Assembly (NCBI GenBank): GCA_039630055.1
Contig: JBCNVN010000001.1
Location: 96,001 to 160,000 of the forward strand
Reading direction: 5' to 3'
Source: Candidatus Caldarchaeales archaeon
Lineage (GTDB): Archaea; Thermoproteota; Nitrososphaeria_A; Caldarchaeales; Wolframiiraptoraceae
Length of the DNA stretch: 64,000 nucleotides
How positions within the stretch are numbered: the stretch's first letter is position 1; each line of letters starts with the position of its first letter. Positions 24,001-30,000 of the stretch are shown here, one piece after another. The position numbers were made by a program.

Positions 24001-27000
24001 ATTATCTAAGAAGATTGAGAGGTTGCTTAAGATAAAGATACTGGTCCCATCGATCGAAGAAGATCTTGAACAGATCTCAAAATATGTAGAAAAAGGAGAG
24101 AAGCAGAAAAGTGTATCTTTAGGATTATTCTTTAAAAAGATTGATGAAAAATCTAAGAGATAGTATAAATTTATGTAAAGAGTTTTAAAGAAGCTCTAGA
24201 ATTAGTAGGGATGGAAGGTACATAGAGAGTGAAGGTTGCAATCGTTCATAGAGTTAACCCGGGAGAAAATGATAATCTAGAAGAACTCAGCGAGCTTTGT
24301 CATACTGCTAACTATGAAGTAGTGTATAGGGTACGGCAAGAGAGACCTCCACATCCAGAATATAATATTGGTCCAGGGAAGGTGGAAGAGCTTAAAAAGG
24401 CTGTTCAAGAGCTGGATATAGAGAAGGTAATATTTGAGAACGAGTTGAAGCCTGTTCAAGAATATAATCTTGCTAAGAAGCTAGGCGTACAGGTAATTAG
24501 TAGAACTCAGCTCATCTTAGAGATATTTACTCTACATGCTAACAGTATCGAGGCTAAACTCCAGATAAAACTAGCAGAATTAAAGTATGAGCTATCTAGA
24601 GCTAAGGAGAAAGTTAGACTGGCGAAGAAGGGAGAGCAGCCTGGATTTCACGGTCTAGGAGCCTACGAAGCAGACGTGTATTATGATGAGATCCATAAGA
24701 GGATAGTTTCAATTAATAGAAAGCTTGAATCAATTAAAAAACATATGGATCTGATAAGGTTTGAGAGGAAGAAGCTAGGTATACCTCTAGTCTCACTATC
24801 TGGATATACCAATGCTGGCAAATCTTCTCTATTCAACCTCTTAGCATCAGAAGATGTTGAAGTAAATTCCCAGCTTTTCACGACTTTAACGCCGACCACG
24901 AGGATCGTGAGATTGGGAGGCAAACCGGTATTCTTATCAGATACTGTAGGATTCATCAGCAATCTTCCAACGCTACTGATAGAGGCATTCTATGCAACTC
25001 TTCGAGAGATTGCTTTATCAGACTTAATATTATTGATGGTCGATATATCTGAACCTCTACCTATAGTAGAGAAGAAGCTTGGAACATCTATTGATGCGTT
25101 AAACAGTATCGGTGCCAATGGTGTCCCAGTCTTAGTTGTCTTTAACAAGATAGACTTGGTAGATGAATCTGAATTAAATAAAAAGATTGAGAGGTTGGGT
25201 CTACCATATCAACATGTAGTGATATCTGCAAAGAATGGCATTAATATCGATAAGCTGGAGAAGACGGCATCAGAGATGTTGAGAGGCTTTATCAAGGTTA
25301 AAGCTACAATCCCCCATGATAGAAGATATATGAAGATAGTTAAAGAATTGTATAGAAAGTCAAAGGTAATGAGTATCGAATACGATGATAGCCATGTGAA
25401 GATAGAGGTGGAGACTACTGTGGATTTAGCGGAAAAGTTGAAGAGATTATCTATCGAAGGAGGATTTAGAGTTGAATGATCAAGATCTTCTAGAAGCTGT
25501 TAGACTTATAGCCGATTACCAGTTCGGCTTTAGAGTAGGATCAAGACTCTTTCCAAATGAGTCTAAAATCCAAGTATCTAAGAAGACTGGTAGACCTAGA
25601 TACATCTTACTTGGAGATAAACTATTAGCAACTGTAAGGAGTAGTGATGGAATGTTGGCTTTAACATTATATGGTGGTGAGAGACTTTCCCATATAATCG
25701 AATGGCCAAGACGTAGGATCATAGTTAAAGACAGTCATCTAGATAAAGTTTTAGAAATGAAGGTTGTAAAGGCAGACTGGGTATCTTATGTAGATGAGAA
25801 CCTGGCTCCAAATGAAGAAGTATTGGTCTACAACTCTTCTAGAAGATTGATAGGTGTTGGGAGAGTAACTACATCTGGTAAAACCATCCTCACTGTTAGC
25901 GGTGGGACGGTCGTAAAGATAAGAGAAGTTGATGAGAAAATAAGACCTGATCCTGTACCCTGATATCTTATTCCTTCCATGATATTGAGATAGGCAATAT
26001 ATTATTTTATTTAAAAAATATAGGAAAGAATATTATACGACCTAGAACATAAGACTTAACAGAAGCCAAGTATAGGTGTTAAGGGTATGAAAAAGCTCTC
26101 CCCTCGGCAATTGAGACGGATGCAGGCCCGCATGCTTGGAAACCTTGGATTAGATCTAAAAGAGTTGGGAATAGCTGAAGAAGTGGTTATCAGACTCCAA
26201 GACAAGGAGTTGAAGATTAAGAATCCAACAGTCATGTCCATGAAGATTGAGAATGAGACAGTGTACCAGATCCTAGGAGGAGAGGTTGAAGAAGTCTCAC
26301 CGACTATTGGTAGAGAGGTTGAAGAGGCTTACACTCCATCTGAGGAGGATTTGATGCTCGTGGCAGCCCAGGCTGGAGTAAGTGAGGAGGAAGCTAGGGA
26401 AGCCTTAGTAGAGACTCGTGGAGATCTAGCCAAAGCGATACTATTATTAAAGTCTAGGAAAACCTAGACGGGCTCAATCTTCAAATCTTATAATGAATGG
26501 GTTTCCAGTCTCTGAAAGATATCTAAAAAGTACTATAGCTTCGTCAAGGATCTTTCTCTTTCTAAGATTTTTAACAATAGAGATATATCCTCCATCGATC
26601 TGAGAAGCTATCTCAGATTCTAGACTCGCTCTCTCTTCAATATTCTTAAATTTTTCCATAGGTGGATATACTAGGAAACTATAATCACTGATATCTTTAG
26701 GCTCCTTTAATCCTAGTCTACGATACGTTGATTTAAGCATTCTTCTAGCTGAGGATCTAGCAGTTCGAGAAGATAGGGATATTTTCCCAATTAGACTTGA
26801 ATCTTTCTTCAGTGAGTCTTTAAATATTCTTAAAACCTCATTAATAAAATTGTATGATTCTTTTGAAGCTTGTGGCCCAGCTTCATAGACGGTTCTCGCA
26901 GCATCGAGGACTCCATATAAAGATGAAGTATAGGCGATCTCTCCAAGATATCTTCTACCATATATCTGTTTAAAGAACTTCGTTCTTCTACTTAATGCAG

Positions 27001-30000
27001 TGAGACCGTGCATGGTTAACTCTCTAACTCTCCTCATGATGTATTCAATGTCTTTACCTGATACTAGAGCAAGAGATAGTACATTTATAGTAAAGATTGC
27101 ATGAATATCTGAAGGGTTTTCTCTAGGTGGAAGCTTGAAGCCAGAGTATAGTATATCAGGTGAATTAGCGACGGCATATTCGTGGTTAAAATTCTTAAAG
27201 ACTTCGCTGAGCTTCTGAAGGTCTTGATGCTTTAGATTATCTAAGACTACGGTAAACTTTATCTTATCTTCTGATCCATCGATCCTCTTAACAAAATCGA
27301 TCATCTTTTCATAATTTTCCAGTAGATCTTCAATGCTTATAGTTATACTGAAGTATCTCCTCCTTAGTAAACCAGCATGGAACACATGCTTAATCATCTT
27401 AAAAGTATTTTCAAATTCTTCTTTTCCACCAACTCTAATATTTAATTCATGTTTAATATTAATAATATAGCTAGATATATCTGAGATGATCTCTAGAGAT
27501 TCTTCTACATCGCTTGGAGCATGATAGCTTCTAGCTAAGATACAGGTTAGCCAACCCTCTAAAGGATATAGGTCTATCTCTCCTGAAAGATGCATCTCTG
27601 CAATATTTCTTGGGAGTAAGCTTTGTAGACAGTATTCTTTCATAATCGATTCTGAAGATTTTTCAATGAACTCTCTTAGATCTCCTGTATTCGAGATATT
27701 TTTTAAAGTTTTAGAAACATCATATATCGGCATCCCAATCCTTGTTAATCTATGTCTATACTTTTCCAAACCCATATCTAAAAGTATGTTGTTGACAAGC
27801 TCTCTTATGAGAGAAGATGTTAGATACTCTATTTTCAGATCTTTTAACTTCTCTTCAGCTATTGAAGCTATCTCCGAGGCCAATTTTAAACTAATGTTTG
27901 CTTCTCTCACTAGTGATCGAGCTATCTTAGACTTGTCAAACGGTTCTACGAGATTATCACTTCTCCTTACAATCATTAAATCTCTAGACCCTAAAGCTTT
28001 CCTAAGCTCTTCTAGAATTTCTAGCATCGTCAGACCAATCCTTGACAATTTATATTTACCAGAATCTTTATCAACTTCAATTAAACTCACATTTAGCATC
28101 TTCTTTAAATGATATGAAAATTTTCCAGCATCTTTATTCTTCTCTAATCCAAGCGAAGCCATCAACTCTGAGTAACCCATCTCTCTCTTAGATAGAAGCC
28201 TTAAGATCTCTGATCTTGTAGGAGATGCGATAGCGTCCAAGATATTATTGACATCGTTTGCAGTCTTATCCATATTTCTCCAAGAATAGAATTAGAGTAT
28301 TCGCTCTAAAAAATTTGTACTCATTGTTGTAAAAGATATTATTTCGAGAATCTCAAGATAATTCAAGAATATTCTACCTATGGAAAATTACTAAAGACTA
28401 CAGGATAGATTGTAAGACTATGATACCTTATATATTCTCTATTCTTTATTTACTGAGAGGTCCTATATGGAAGAATTTTATAGTGGAATTCGAGAGATTG
28501 TAAACGATAAAGTTCATGGTTCAACCCAGATTGCTATAAACTTAATGAGGTTTCTATCAAGAAATTTAGAGAATGTTGATCTATACAAACTTAGAGAGAT
28601 ATTTGACGAAGTATTGAGTATTGCTGAAACTAGGACTTCCATAATCCTACCGATAAACATGCTACATATACTGAGAGAAGCTGTCGAATCATCTATAAGT
28701 AGAGATGTGAGATCAAATGTGAAGAGATTGATAGACTCTCTCCTTTCATATTATAGTCAAGATCTAGAATGGTCGGCAGAGAATGGGGCGAAGGCTTTAG
28801 AGGGTTACAGAAGAATCTTTACTTTAAGTTATAGCTCACAGGTATTAAAGGTTCTGAGAAAGATTAAAGATATAGAAGTATCTATTGTGGCTGGATGGCC
28901 TCTCTTAGATGGGTTAAGGGCTTCAAGAGAATTGAGATCAGTCGGTGTTAAAACTTTCCTCTATCCAGACTCCTCCATATATGAGGCCATAAATTCATCA
29001 GATGCCATCTTCCTAGGATGTGACGCTATTCTCATAGATGGTTCAATAATAAATAGATCAGGCTCTAGAATAGCCACATTGATTTCTAACTACGAGTCTA
29101 TACCCTCGTATGTGATCGGTGAGAGTCTAAAGTTAGATATTAGGTCTATATGGAAGCCTGAGGTATGGAAATATGTTTTTGAAGATGTAGAGACGGAGTT
29201 TCAAGTATTCGAAAAGGTTGAGTTTGAACTTATCTCGAAACACATCTCAGAGCTGGGCATAGATACTCCAAGAAATTTTGTAAATAAAGCCTTGAGAAAG
29301 ATGGAAGAATATACTAGAAAACTTTTAGAGAGTGTTCTCAGCAACTAGGTTAAGTTGTCTGTATACACGTTAGCAAACTAACTATCATTCAATCTTGTAT
29401 TAAACTATCCCAGAAATCCAACTCATACCGCTGGATAGTCTTCGCAATAAACCTATATCTATCCCAATCCAGATACCTTTCAGCGATCTTCTCAGCCTTC
29501 TCATCTAACACGTTATATGGACCTGAAAACAATTCAAAGATCTTTGTAGATCTTATCGATATCCTCTTGACGTATTCTCCGAGATTCTTGACGTTCTCGC
29601 CCCAAACGGGAAGGTTTACGATTAAAGCTATGGCCACATCCCCTGGAGAACCATTCAATGCTAGCCATGAAAGAAAGTGTGTGTAGGATACTGCTTTGGG
29701 AGATACCTTACTATAGTCTAATTTGATATTGAGCTCATCTGAGAGCATGTATAGTGCTCTTAGAGCTTCGTAATCACCATCAACTAAGAGTTTGAAGAAC
29801 TCGAGCTCATCCATCCTACTAGCCTTAGAGAGTATATGTGAGAGAGCTTTCAGATCGTGTGGAATTATATATAGCTGATTCTCTACAAATCTTCTAAGTA
29901 TCTCATTGCTTGGTTCACGAATAGAAGGATGTTGAAGTATCTTCTTGTTCAGTTCTTCCAACTCTTCTCTCAGCTTATTTATTATGTAACCCATTCCTCT

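Follow-up and report, generated by a model that had tools for sequence, protein, structure and literature searches.

What does an archaeon keep a protein for in which a DNA-binding domain and an ATP-cone are joined to the barrel of a class III ribonucleotide reductase (RNR)? Such a protein is encoded in the window, that is, the whole stretch of 64,000 nucleotides analysed here. Its gene, defined by the ORF list and the translation, lies at 26474..28273 on the minus strand and consists of 599 codons, opening with ATG, and a stop codon; the 26477-28273 of the initial annotation is the same ORF minus the stop codon. The 599-aa product combines an ArsR-type winged helix (residues 11-84) with an ATP-cone (100-172) and an NrdD barrel (about 180-599). 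It had been read as a nucleotide-sensing regulator, an archaeal counterpart of NrdR, and the structural half of that reading stands; the functional half still has to be put conditionally but is now much better grounded. Here, we describe the domain make-up of the protein, its loss of catalytic features, its pattern of conservation and its genomic linkage to RNR genes, and we propose, with somewhat more confidence than doubt, that the gene encodes a pseudo-enzyme transcription regulator, in which an inactivated NrdD and its ATP-cone have gained an ArsR-type winged helix-turn-helix (wHTH). As before, no published description of this wHTH-ATP-cone-NrdD family was found in the literature, and database names read 'ArsR family transcriptional regulator', as had also been remarked.

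Conserved ATP-cone and winged-helix modules

The ArsR-type winged helix-turn-helix (residues 11-84; 28022..28243, minus strand) was recognized by the Pfam models HTH_5 (27.9 bits, cut-off 22), HTH_20 (27.8 bits, cut-off 27) and DUF7347 (32.5 bits, cut-off 27.6), and by the family profile, which over this module matches the NolR, NmtR and ArsR structures in the PDB (chains 4omy, 2lkp and 6j05) at E values of 1e-5 to 2e-4. Its recognition helix reads DAGKFSYHLKK (residues 48-58), of which D48, A49, G50, F52, Y54, H55 and L56 are invariant in an alignment of 47 rows. The ATP-cone follows at residues 100-172 (27758..27976, minus strand; Pfam ATP-cone, 36.5 bits, cut-off 25.8, E 7.5e-9). Its phosphate- and base-binding positions are near-invariant both in the 47 rows and among the 236 family members of at least 520 aa that were used for column counts, with V102, R103, E110, F112, K116, I117, R157, Y172 and R173 kept in 194-235 of the 236. 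Just two cysteines occur in the whole protein, C215 and C244, as counted earlier; neither is conserved, none lies in residues 1-214, and the lack of an invariant Cys that had been noted for 17 rows is equally true of the 47-row alignment. Mean identity to the 599-aa protein is 71% in the ATP-cone, 51% in the wHTH and 26% in the barrel among 46 close relatives, and 47%, 33% and 14%, respectively, among 177 distant ones, which ranks the ATP-cone as the best conserved module and the barrel as the worst.

A single-copy orthologue is present in 73 of the 76 genomes of the same class, including 43 of 43 high-quality ones, and across the phylum relatives were detected in 273 of the 401 genomes sampled; the earlier count of 140 homologues was obtained again. 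Within Thermoproteota, every ammonia-oxidiser-like genome in the sample contains the family, which according to Atlas clusters also extends to Asgard and DPANN lineages. The gene is found in 56/56 genomes of family f5 and is lacking altogether from f7 (0/16), f14 (0/23), f16 (0/12) and f21 (0/15). Genus g11, which belongs to the same class as the window, has an RNR in 7/7 genomes, yet gave only weak matches confined to the wHTH, or none. NrdR, searched for with TIGR00244, exceeds the cut-off in 24 of the 401 phylum genomes, all from one family (f15) and none from the class of the window. Because NrdR (24/25) and the wHTH-ATP-cone-NrdD protein (24/25) coexist in f15, the latter is not a plain replacement for NrdR.

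A class III barrel stripped of radical chemistry

The remainder of the chain divides into a linker with the first NrdD-like helices and strand (residues 176-245; 27539..27748, minus strand), placed by alignment with three genuine NrdDs, and a degenerate NrdD alpha/beta barrel (residues 246-599; 26477..27538, minus strand), delimited by Foldseek, the profile and a comparison of C-termini. The Pfam NRDD model reaches only 20.9 bits, below its cut-off of 26.2, in a partial match of residues 394-589 to profile positions 282-497 of 562. When the AlphaFold2 model (pLDDT 85.3, pTM 0.69) was compared with the PDB by Foldseek, the best matches were all class III RNRs, with 8p2c on top (E 3.9e-15) and 9d3x, 4u3e/4coi and T4 1hk8 behind it, and the 47-row family profile found the NrdD chain 9d3x at E 1.8e-11 and 4coi at 3.8e-8 over chain residues 370-581. 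The 5e-16 over residues 323-581 given earlier for 4COI came from a different alignment; the TM of 0.72-0.75 to NrdD clusters of the Atlas was also recovered. Foldseek and profile together identify a ten-stranded alpha/beta barrel homologous to NrdD, the fold expected of a class III RNR.

For the catalytic site, we took as the reference three genuine NrdDs from sister genomes (P0264, P0265 and P0266) rather than the ASCCRL motif and Cys numbering of the initial annotation, since the available part of the T. maritima paper (PMC4493059) gives Ile359 as the finger-loop tip and makes no mention of a 'Cys330'. The reference proteins carry SMCCRL or QCCAY, HIH(D/N), a Zn site and R(V/I)(V/T)GY, and in two of the sister genomes (P0264, P0265) NrdG adjoins the NrdD. 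In the 599-aa protein, alignment with these NrdDs leaves ILYSGFKLP (residues 374-382; 27128..27154, minus strand) as a finger-loop remnant opposite SMCCRLRLD, with Ser377 at the position of the thiyl Cys and without the finger-loop CC. Across the family, the thiyl-aligned column is Cys in only 7 of 236 members, the column next to it is Gly in 191 of 236 (Gly378 here) and the finger-loop residues are free to vary. The triphosphate motif HxHD is lost too, since GEIDLYPLE (231-239) stands where genuine NrdD has GDFHIH(D/N)L, and no Cys is conserved after DLYP in the 47 rows as a counterpart of the bottom-face Cys; in tmNrdD, the HYHD triphosphate motif and this Cys are residues 111-115 and Cys125, according to the portion of PMC4493059 at hand. 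The C-terminus comes directly after the last barrel strand, with neither Zn ribbon nor glycyl-radical tail, and the C-terminal Zn site of four Cys or His is absent from this protein and its close relatives and kept in about 135 of the 236 longer members. A check of these longer relatives for a radical domain, which had been left undone, found Gly in the radical-Gly column of 17/236, the Tyr that follows it in genuine NrdD in 0/236 and a thiyl Cys combined with the radical-Gly motif in 0/236.

In the genome, a PF13597 search returned 0 matches to NrdD, and a sister-genome NrdG used as query hit generic radical-SAM proteins only (best E 1.2e-7, with 32% identity over 85 residues of a 529-aa frame), although in a genome that is 92% complete the absence of NrdG is not proven. 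No class I small subunit was found and TIGR00244 had no match in this genome, whose sole RNR is the class II-type enzyme at C2:4819-7527 that had been located before. Lacking the CC, HxHD, Zn ribbon and glycyl-radical tail, and with no NrdG found, the protein cannot be a glycyl-radical reductase, as had already been claimed; judged by its sequence, the conclusion that it is a homologue of class III RNR unable to act in that capacity is supported. Some barrel residues common to genuine NrdD are invariant in the 47 rows (E276, N397, R511, Y531 and G562), N397 and Y531 being invariant across the genuine NrdDs as well, and the phosphate-binding helix is partly retained (P-x-S-A-A-x-R); with these residues kept, a ligand site or some residual activity is conceivable.

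The barrel is also predicted to dimerize. Residues 181-599 gave a homodimer score of 0.70, against 0.00 for the best control, with a tool whose mark was reached by 20 of 30 solved one-chain pairs and by 1 of 23 solved single chains; as NrdD dimers are among the solved structures, this pass may reflect likeness only. Three runs agreed in at least 87% of contacts, with a partner pLDDT of at least 85, on an interface formed by helices 183-218, 256-272 and 292-301, to which the stretch 176-245 would contribute.

Linkage to RNR genes and candidate operators

In its own genome the gene lies beside no nucleotide gene, its neighbours being NAC, a PUA protein and an IF-2B-family gene; the RNR gene is carried by contig C2, pyrB-like genes are found on C26, on C23 and at C1:38437, and dcd is located on C34 and C23. 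In the class, the target gene and the RNR gene are far apart or on different contigs. To look beyond it, 25 loci from 25 families were fetched, and 24 of them yielded the target gene. In 7 of these 24 families it is followed directly, on the same strand, by an RNR gene, of class II-type in three loci (L096, L097 and L098) and a genuine NrdD in four (L078, L081, L085 and L093); dcd, for dCTP deaminase, is immediately downstream in 2 of the 24 (L088 and L095), and pyrB or pyrI is adjacent in 8 more, the pyrB adjacency being tail-to-tail, an arrangement that may have been inherited without any common control. In family f5, the target gene is followed by the RNR gene in 29 of 31 loci, and the remaining two had less than 330 nt of flank. 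This order mirrors the Streptomyces nrdRJ operon, in which nrdR directly precedes a class II RNR gene (PMC9110341, in the part available). The RNR, dcd and pyr context ties the family to deoxynucleotide supply and, by analogy, supports an NrdR-like nucleotide-sensing regulator. Because the gene so often stands directly before a working RNR gene in related archaea, the 599-aa protein probably helps to control the supply of DNA building blocks.

Upstream of the gene, a spacer of 28274..28466 (no strand assigned) separates it from the divergent IF-2B-family gene. Its sequence contains a TATA-like box, AAATTTTTTAGAG, at 28304-28316, which ends 30 nt before the ATG; the remaining genomes of the genus have a TATA-like box, AATATTTTTAGAG, in the corresponding position. 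The spacer also holds a perfect palindrome, AGAATATTCT, at 28366-28375, which is a lead only, because it is not conserved in those other genomes. Another perfect palindrome, TATGAAnTTCATA, occurs at a fixed distance in 9 of 31 target-RNR spacers; each of the four genomes listed contains just one or two copies of it. A related TATAGAA(G/C)TTC precedes the RNR gene, at -133 to -139, in 6 of the 26 loci from the class, among them that of the genome studied here. In a shuffle test, 0 of 300 shuffles reached the observed count of GAAnTTC, a result inflated by kinship. Before RNR genes the element is not conserved across the whole genus, and in the target gene's own upstream regions it was seen in 1 of 27 and is otherwise absent. 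No operator common to the target's promoter and the RNR promoter was established, and the earlier statement to this effect stands.

Discussion

Our data suggest a model whereby a class III RNR ancestor retained its N-terminal ATP-cone and its dimer-forming barrel, shed all parts needed for radical chemistry and acquired an ArsR-type winged helix at the N-terminus. The barrel would join two chains by the helices with which real NrdD dimerizes, and the resulting dimer would offer DNA a pair of winged helices. The ATP-cone, if it works as in NrdR and in RNRs regulated by such a domain, may read the ATP/dATP ratio and rearrange the winged helices or the oligomer, so that DNA binding and transcription, of RNR above all and of dcd and pyrBI in some lineages, would track the dNTP pool. 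The adjacency to RNR and dcd, the conservation of the ATP-cone and the lack of NrdR from most of the phylum argue for such a counterpart of NrdR, whereas the coexistence in f15, the genus g11 that does without it, the absence of nucleotide neighbours in its own genome and the missing shared operator argue against a simple one. That in much of the Archaea the family might even be the chief transcriptional control on deoxynucleotide supply, an ancient class III reductase turned sensor, is a bolder and rather doubtful suggestion, which we advance tentatively. If it were true, the ATP-cone would read ATP versus dATP and a vestigial specificity site at the dimer interface the balance of the other dNTPs, so that a single protein would convey to the RNR, dcd and pyrBI promoters how large the dNTP pool is and how it is composed; the 599-aa form encoded in the window would then be a shortened variant from which even the Zn ribbon has gone.

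Several other roles have to be weighed against a transcription regulator. The protein might work at the protein level, as an allosteric sensor or partner either of the real RNR or of the replisome, its dead barrel binding nucleotides or RNR and its winged helix serving protein contacts or unspecific tethering to DNA, with no control of transcription. Same-strand adjacency to RNR genes is often seen for subunits, and the predicted RNR-type dimer interface and the barrel residues shared with NrdD would suit it; however, the adjacent RNRs are of two classes (PF02867-type and NrdD), which makes a specific hetero-complex with each of them difficult to envisage, the near-invariant recognition helix matches ArsR-type DNA readers, and in the class of the window the two genes are separated, which makes this role unlikely. 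We give still less credence to an enzyme, or 'trigger enzyme', that performs non-radical nucleotide chemistry in the old active site and uses the wHTH for autoregulation. The five invariant NrdD residues, the retained part of the phosphate-binding helix and five close relatives with Cys at the thiyl-aligned position (P0004, P0005, P0006, P0008 and P0009) speak for it, but the barrel is the least conserved module (14-26% identity), its finger loop varies, HxHD is gone and no Cys is conserved.

The remaining alternatives accept DNA binding and differ in what is sensed or served. An ordinary metal- or redox-responsive repressor of the ArsR/SmtB type, as several databases label it, is highly improbable: beyond those names and the match to HTH_5, NCBIfam NF033788 (HTH_metalloreg) does match, but at 31.8 bits it is far below its cut-off of 55, the wHTH is without any Cys, the context is one of nucleotide rather than metal genes, and 500 further residues of ATP-cone and NrdD origin would be left unexplained. 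A dNTP-sensing protein that binds DNA for replication or chromatin, for example in origin firing or repair coupling, would use the same sensor and DNA-binding modules and could account for a core gene that is kept even where it is not beside RNR, for coexistence with NrdR in f15, which suggests a separate job, and for the want of an operator common with the target's own promoter. Against it, the repeated same-strand pairing with RNR or dcd is what is expected of a local regulator, and no replication genes recur beside the target in the 24 loci; we regard it as decidedly unlikely.

The preferred reading, a regulator made from a dead reductase, has parallels in known systems. In betaherpesviruses, M45/UL45 are homologues of the RNR large subunit that have lost catalysis and taken on another role; these are class I homologues in animal viruses that act in cell-death signalling and are not known to have a DNA-binding or ATP-cone sensor role. 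With ArsR/SmtB proteins it shares the N-terminal 90 residues, which fit HTH_5 and HTH_20 and match ArsR, NolR and NmtR structures, but it has no metal-binding Cys/His site, is five times longer and carries sensor modules related to nucleotides. The NrdDs with an N-terminal ATP-cone (P. copri, S. thermophilus, T. maritima and phage T4) have the same barrel fold, the same position of the ATP-cone and, by prediction, the same dimer helices, and the sister-genome subtype P0266 is closest in ATP-cone and linker; the 599-aa protein differs from them in its lost finger-loop Cys pair, HxHD, Zn ribbon and glycyl-radical tail, in its extra wHTH and in a genome in which no NrdG was found. NrdR, in turn, a bacterial repressor of RNR genes that acts through paired boxes in their promoters, is only about 150 aa long and reads DNA with a Zn ribbon, whereas our protein has a winged helix with no N-terminal Zn ribbon, contains a whole dead NrdD barrel and is not matched by TIGR00244. 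Nevertheless, both fuse a DNA-binding domain to an ATP-cone, which in NrdR senses ATP and dATP, and the gene order of regulator then RNR is common to Streptomyces nrdRJ, as described in the available part of PMC9110341, and 7 of the 24 archaeal families.

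Results

P0001, the 599-aa protein under study, is encoded by a single ORF with an ATG start (window 26474-28273, minus strand; 599 codons plus stop). Three ArsR-type winged-helix models of Pfam, each above its cut-off, match residues 11-84, an ATP-cone occupies residues 100-172 (36.5 bits against a cut-off of 25.8) and a sub-threshold NRDD match covers residues 394-589 (20.9 bits against 26.2); no NCBIfam family covers the protein, and the nearest, HTH_metalloreg, reaches 31.8 bits where 55 are required. The AlphaFold2 model, with 47 relatives as input (pLDDT 85.3, pTM 0.69), is of low confidence only at the N-terminus and in the inter-domain linkers 95-97 and 176-179, which suggests three modules on flexible tethers. 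When this model was searched against the PDB with Foldseek, P. copri 8p2c came first (E 3.9e-15), then S. thermophilus 9d3x, T. maritima 4u3e/4coi and phage T4 1hk8, all class III ribonucleotide reductases (RNRs; NrdD), with class Ia enzymes after these. A 47-row family profile likewise matched NrdD chains (9d3x at 1.8e-11; 4coi at 3.8e-8, chain residues 370-581) as well as the ArsR-type structures 4omy, 2lkp and 6j05; the profile was needed for this, the single sequence giving only a weak ArsR match (E 0.0096). A repeated Atlas search returned the TM scores of 0.72-0.75 to NrdD clusters reported in the initial annotation, whose assignment of a wHTH, an ATP-cone and an NrdD-like barrel is confirmed by Pfam, Foldseek, profile and Atlas searches.

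Genuine NrdDs from genomes of the same class served as the reference for catalytic residues. Full-profile PF13597 matches (positions 1-562 or 2-546, E 1e-94 to 1e-205) are present in 9 of 76 class genomes, one of them in the same genus; the genome of P0001 has none. Three genuine NrdDs from sister genomes were extracted (P0264, P0265 and P0266), and a radical-SAM activase gene adjoins the first two. In the joint alignment, the genuine enzymes show GDFHIH(D/N)L at the triphosphate motif (reported as HYHD in T. maritima NrdD, PMC4493059), the finger loop SMCCRLRLD, a Cys/His Zn site and the glycyl-radical loop YSR(V/I)(V/T)GY. P0001 reads GEIDLYPLE at the triphosphate motif and ILYSGFKLP at the finger loop, with Ser377 at the thiyl position, and because the chain stops directly after the last barrel strand, the Zn site and radical loop are missing altogether. 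Its only cysteines, the two counted previously, are C215 and C244, both of them unconserved. No NrdG was found in the same genome, where the best match to a sister-genome NrdG is a generic radical-SAM frame (E 1.2e-7), nor was a class I small subunit; the one RNR found, again the separate class II-type enzyme at C2:4819-7527, carries its own ATP-cone. Thus, though P0001 is an NrdD homologue, every catalytic feature tested is absent (CC loop, HxHD-type motif, Zn site, radical tail and a genomic NrdG), which gives good support, as far as glycyl-radical chemistry is concerned, to the earlier claim that it cannot be a reductase.

The initial annotation had left open whether longer relatives possess a radical domain. 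We therefore re-aligned 236 family members of at least 520 aa with the three genuine NrdDs and tabulated them by column, and no functional radical domain was seen. The thiyl column holds Cys in 7/236, the column after it a conserved Gly in 191/236, and the NLPR Asn is retained in 230/236; the four Zn-site columns hold Cys in about 135/236, the radical-Gly column holds Gly in 17/236, and the following Tyr of genuine NrdDs occurs in 0/236, as does the combination of loop Cys and Gly motif. Forms of about 710 aa retain the Zn ribbon and end directly behind it, and forms of 740-800 aa retain a decayed tail. These counts and C-terminal ends indicate, as judged from sequence, that catalysis has been lost throughout the wHTH-bearing family, of which the 599-aa form is the most trimmed version. 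P0266 (L021:1102-3324), a genuine NrdD with the finger loop QCCAYC, closely resembles the dead family in its ATP-cone and linker and is a possible representative of the parent subclass.

A family profile search recovered one full-length copy in 73 of the 76 class genomes and in 43/43 of those of high quality. In an even sample of the phylum (E <=1e-20), homologues occur in 273/401 genomes, 215/334 high-quality genomes and 107/161 genera, including 56/56 genomes of family f5, with none in families f7 (0/16), f14 (0/23), f16 (0/12), f21 (0/15), f25 (0/12) and f28 (0/12). Within the class, genus g11 gives weak wHTH-only matches or none, yet has an RNR in 7/7 genomes. A representative library holds 1011 relatives at E <=1e-3, and the same set of domains also occurs in Atlas clusters labelled Promethearchaeota, Bathyarchaeota and Nanobdellota. 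Conservation is uneven along the chain: mean identity to P0001 among 46 close relatives is 51% in the wHTH, 71% in the ATP-cone, 54% in the linker and first barrel elements and 26% in the rest of the barrel, and the corresponding values among 177 distant relatives are 33%, 47%, 32% and 14%. Recognition-helix residues D48, A49, G50, F52, Y54, H55 and L56, and ATP-cone residues V102, R103, E110, F112, K116, I117, R157, Y172 and R173, show little or no variation.

Genomic context was sampled in about 12 kb around homologues from 25 phylum families, with 137 neighbour ORFs scanned against Pfam; one locus (L091), in which the ORF and motif filter did not recover the target gene, was left out, leaving 24. 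An RNR gene lies directly downstream on the same strand in 7/24 loci, at gaps of 67 to about 330 nt. The product is a class II-type enzyme in three loci (L096, L097 and L098; PF02867 with ATP-cone) and a genuine NrdD in the other four, L078 (thioredoxin next), L081 (glutaredoxin between), L085 and L093. The dCTP deaminase gene (dcd) takes this same-strand downstream place in two further loci (L088, L095), and pyrB or pyrI adjoins the target in eight more (L076, L077, L079, L082, L083, L087, L092, L094), pyrB itself tail-to-tail in six of them. In L078, L081, L097 and L098, pyrB is found after the RNR gene as well. The ancestral order was likely target, RNR, pyrB, pyrI. Family f5 keeps target before RNR in 29/31 loci, the remaining two having less than 330 nt of flank. 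The linkage to RNR and dcd genes is thus strong and repeated. In the genome of P0001, and in its class generally, the target is not adjacent to RNR, dcd or pyrB, and the context argument therefore rests on the relatives. NAC and PUA genes flank the target in the window and in L088, L089, L095 and L100.

Several other features were observed around these genes. An IF-2B-family gene (window 28467-29345, plus strand) is divergent from the P0001 gene and 193 nt apart; the archaeal IF-2B family includes ribose-1,5-bisphosphate and methylthioribose-1-phosphate isomerases. Two adjacent TenA/THI-4 family genes (window 29389-30635, minus strand) encode 201 and 217 aa and overlap by 13 nt, and window 17919-21508 holds a putative redox-defence run of peroxiredoxin-like, superoxide dismutase-like and 682-aa thioredoxin-domain ORFs. 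In several class genomes the class II-type RNR frames reach 1144-1306 aa, and in one case 1736 aa, against the usual 890-930 aa or so, with the Pfam barrel match spread across about 2.6 kb; these frames, among them G052:C61:10990-13596, G048:C29:25624-28233 and others on G051:C30, G054:C43, G038:C20, G073:C35, G068:C66, G022:C1, G027:C10 and G040:C43, look as if they carry intein-type insertions.

Cis elements were sought in 27 upstream regions of the target gene, that of P0001 being window 28274-28466, and 26 of class RNR genes. In 6/26 loci (the genome of P0001, one other of its genus and four of genus g4), TATAGAA(G/C)TTC precedes the RNR gene at -133 to -139, and the RNR promoter of the P0001 genome (contig C2, upstream of 7527) includes TATAGAAGTTCT. 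The core GAAnTTC precedes 11/26 RNR genes against a shuffle mean of 4.8, and 0/300 shuffles reach 11, an enrichment that is overstated because the sequences are kin; we regard it as a lead to a candidate element. As an operator common to the RNR promoter and the target's own it was rejected: it precedes the target in only 1/27 regions and is not kept through the genus, so that the earlier failure to see a shared operator stands for the target's own promoter. In f5, the perfect palindrome TATGAAnTTCATA occupies a fixed place (-167 to -170 from the ATP-cone motif) in 9/31 target-RNR spacers, and L126 and L127 have one-mismatch versions there. Five genomes were searched for a TATGAAnTTCATA regulon, with matches listed for four, and none was found among the matches listed. 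In these, each of the four genomes has one or two exact copies, one of which invariably precedes the RNR gene; the two others, at L151:2028-2040 and L152:2074-2086, are in f5 genomes and fall at the 5' end of a TFB (TFIIB-family) paralogue and in a convergent spacer, neither near a nucleotide gene. Rfam, at E up to 0.1, gave no RNA element in the target-RNR spacers, and one tRNA elsewhere only. Family f5 also has GATC-containing repeats (AAACTGATC, GGATCCAAAA), recurring in arrays roughly every 20 nt, in the pre-RNR spacer and upstream of the homologous gene (L139, L141, L143, L146, L148, L149).

For the barrel (residues 181-599), a homodimer is predicted with a score of 0.70 (best control 0.00). 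When the tool was calibrated, 20/30 proteins solved as one-chain pairs reached the mark, as did 1/23 whose structures are of single chains. Contacts agree to at least 87% between runs, with partner pLDDT of at least 85. Because NrdD dimers are among the solved structures, this pass may reflect only likeness to them. The predicted interface comprises helices 183-218, 256-272 and 292-301, of which the second and third are the barrel's first two helices. The corresponding pair in T. maritima NrdD is described as the dimer interface that holds the specificity effector, with Gln161, Gln210 and Gln218 forming the specificity site (PMC4493059); over these helices the alignment of P0001 with that enzyme is too poor for a residue-level match.

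Discussion

To our knowledge, the control of RNR genes in archaea is largely uncharted. The bacterial regulator NrdR is described as rare in archaea (PMC9110341). In this report, we describe a widespread, mostly single-copy family that stands before RNR genes of two classes, and its DNA-binding domain, NrdR-type sensor and gene position make it a concrete candidate for the missing archaeal regulator. Together, the RNR and dcd linkage and the conservation pattern suggest that the P0001 family is, on balance, probably a nucleotide-sensing DNA-binding regulator. We propose a model whereby the barrel would pair two chains, so that the dimer would carry a pair of winged helices in the manner of ArsR-type regulators; the ATP-cone, by analogy with NrdR and ATP-cone-bearing NrdDs, might translate the ATP/dATP ratio into a change of geometry or oligomeric state that could in turn alter DNA binding.

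The main rivals are that the protein is a residual enzyme, a protein-level partner of RNR or a replication-linked sensor. A residual enzyme would be in keeping with five close relatives (P0004, P0005, P0006, P0008 and P0009; 597-603 aa) that read SLYCGLRLP and so place a Cys at the thiyl-aligned position, which counts against too tidy a picture; the radical tail is missing in these as well, and the uneven conservation, high in the ATP-cone and recognition helix and low in the barrel, points to selection on the DNA-reading and nucleotide-reading parts and not on the old enzyme. A partner acting on RNR itself could share the gene order seen in the relatives, and a sensor tied to replication could share the conserved ATP-cone; the near-invariant recognition helix, together with linkage to both RNR and dcd genes, leads us to prefer the regulator.

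If the regulatory reading is true, the family would offer a plain example of a radical enzyme converted to serve as a sensor scaffold, and one that is testable in cultivable ammonia-oxidising archaea. The dead family is so widespread as to be of consequence in archaeal biology, and it explains a common mis-annotation: members are named either 'ArsR family regulator' or 'anaerobic ribonucleoside-triphosphate reductase' in databases, and aerobic archaea thus seem to have an anaerobic reductase that the gene cannot encode. As in the initial annotation, full-text literature searches yielded no description of the wHTH-ATP-cone-NrdD-like architecture or its role; subscription journals and supplementary files were outside their scope, so a prior mention is possible.

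Among known systems, NrdR also joins a DNA-binding domain to an ATP-cone. P0001 resembles it on paper without belonging to the family: it has no Zn ribbon, and the NrdR model TIGR00244 has no match in its genome. Across the sampled phylum, NrdR scores above cut-off in 24/401 genomes, all of family f15 (24/25), where a P0001 homologue is also present in 24/25 genomes, and the two are therefore not mutually exclusive. The order of regulator gene and class II RNR gene reported for the Streptomyces nrdRJ operon (PMC9110341) is the one seen with the target in relatives. With ArsR-type regulators P0001 shares the wHTH without the metal site, and with NrdD it shares homology, yet none of the catalytic features tested. 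ATP-cone-based control of RNR genes is thus known as a kind; what is new here is that it appears to be built from an unexpected part, a dead NrdD.
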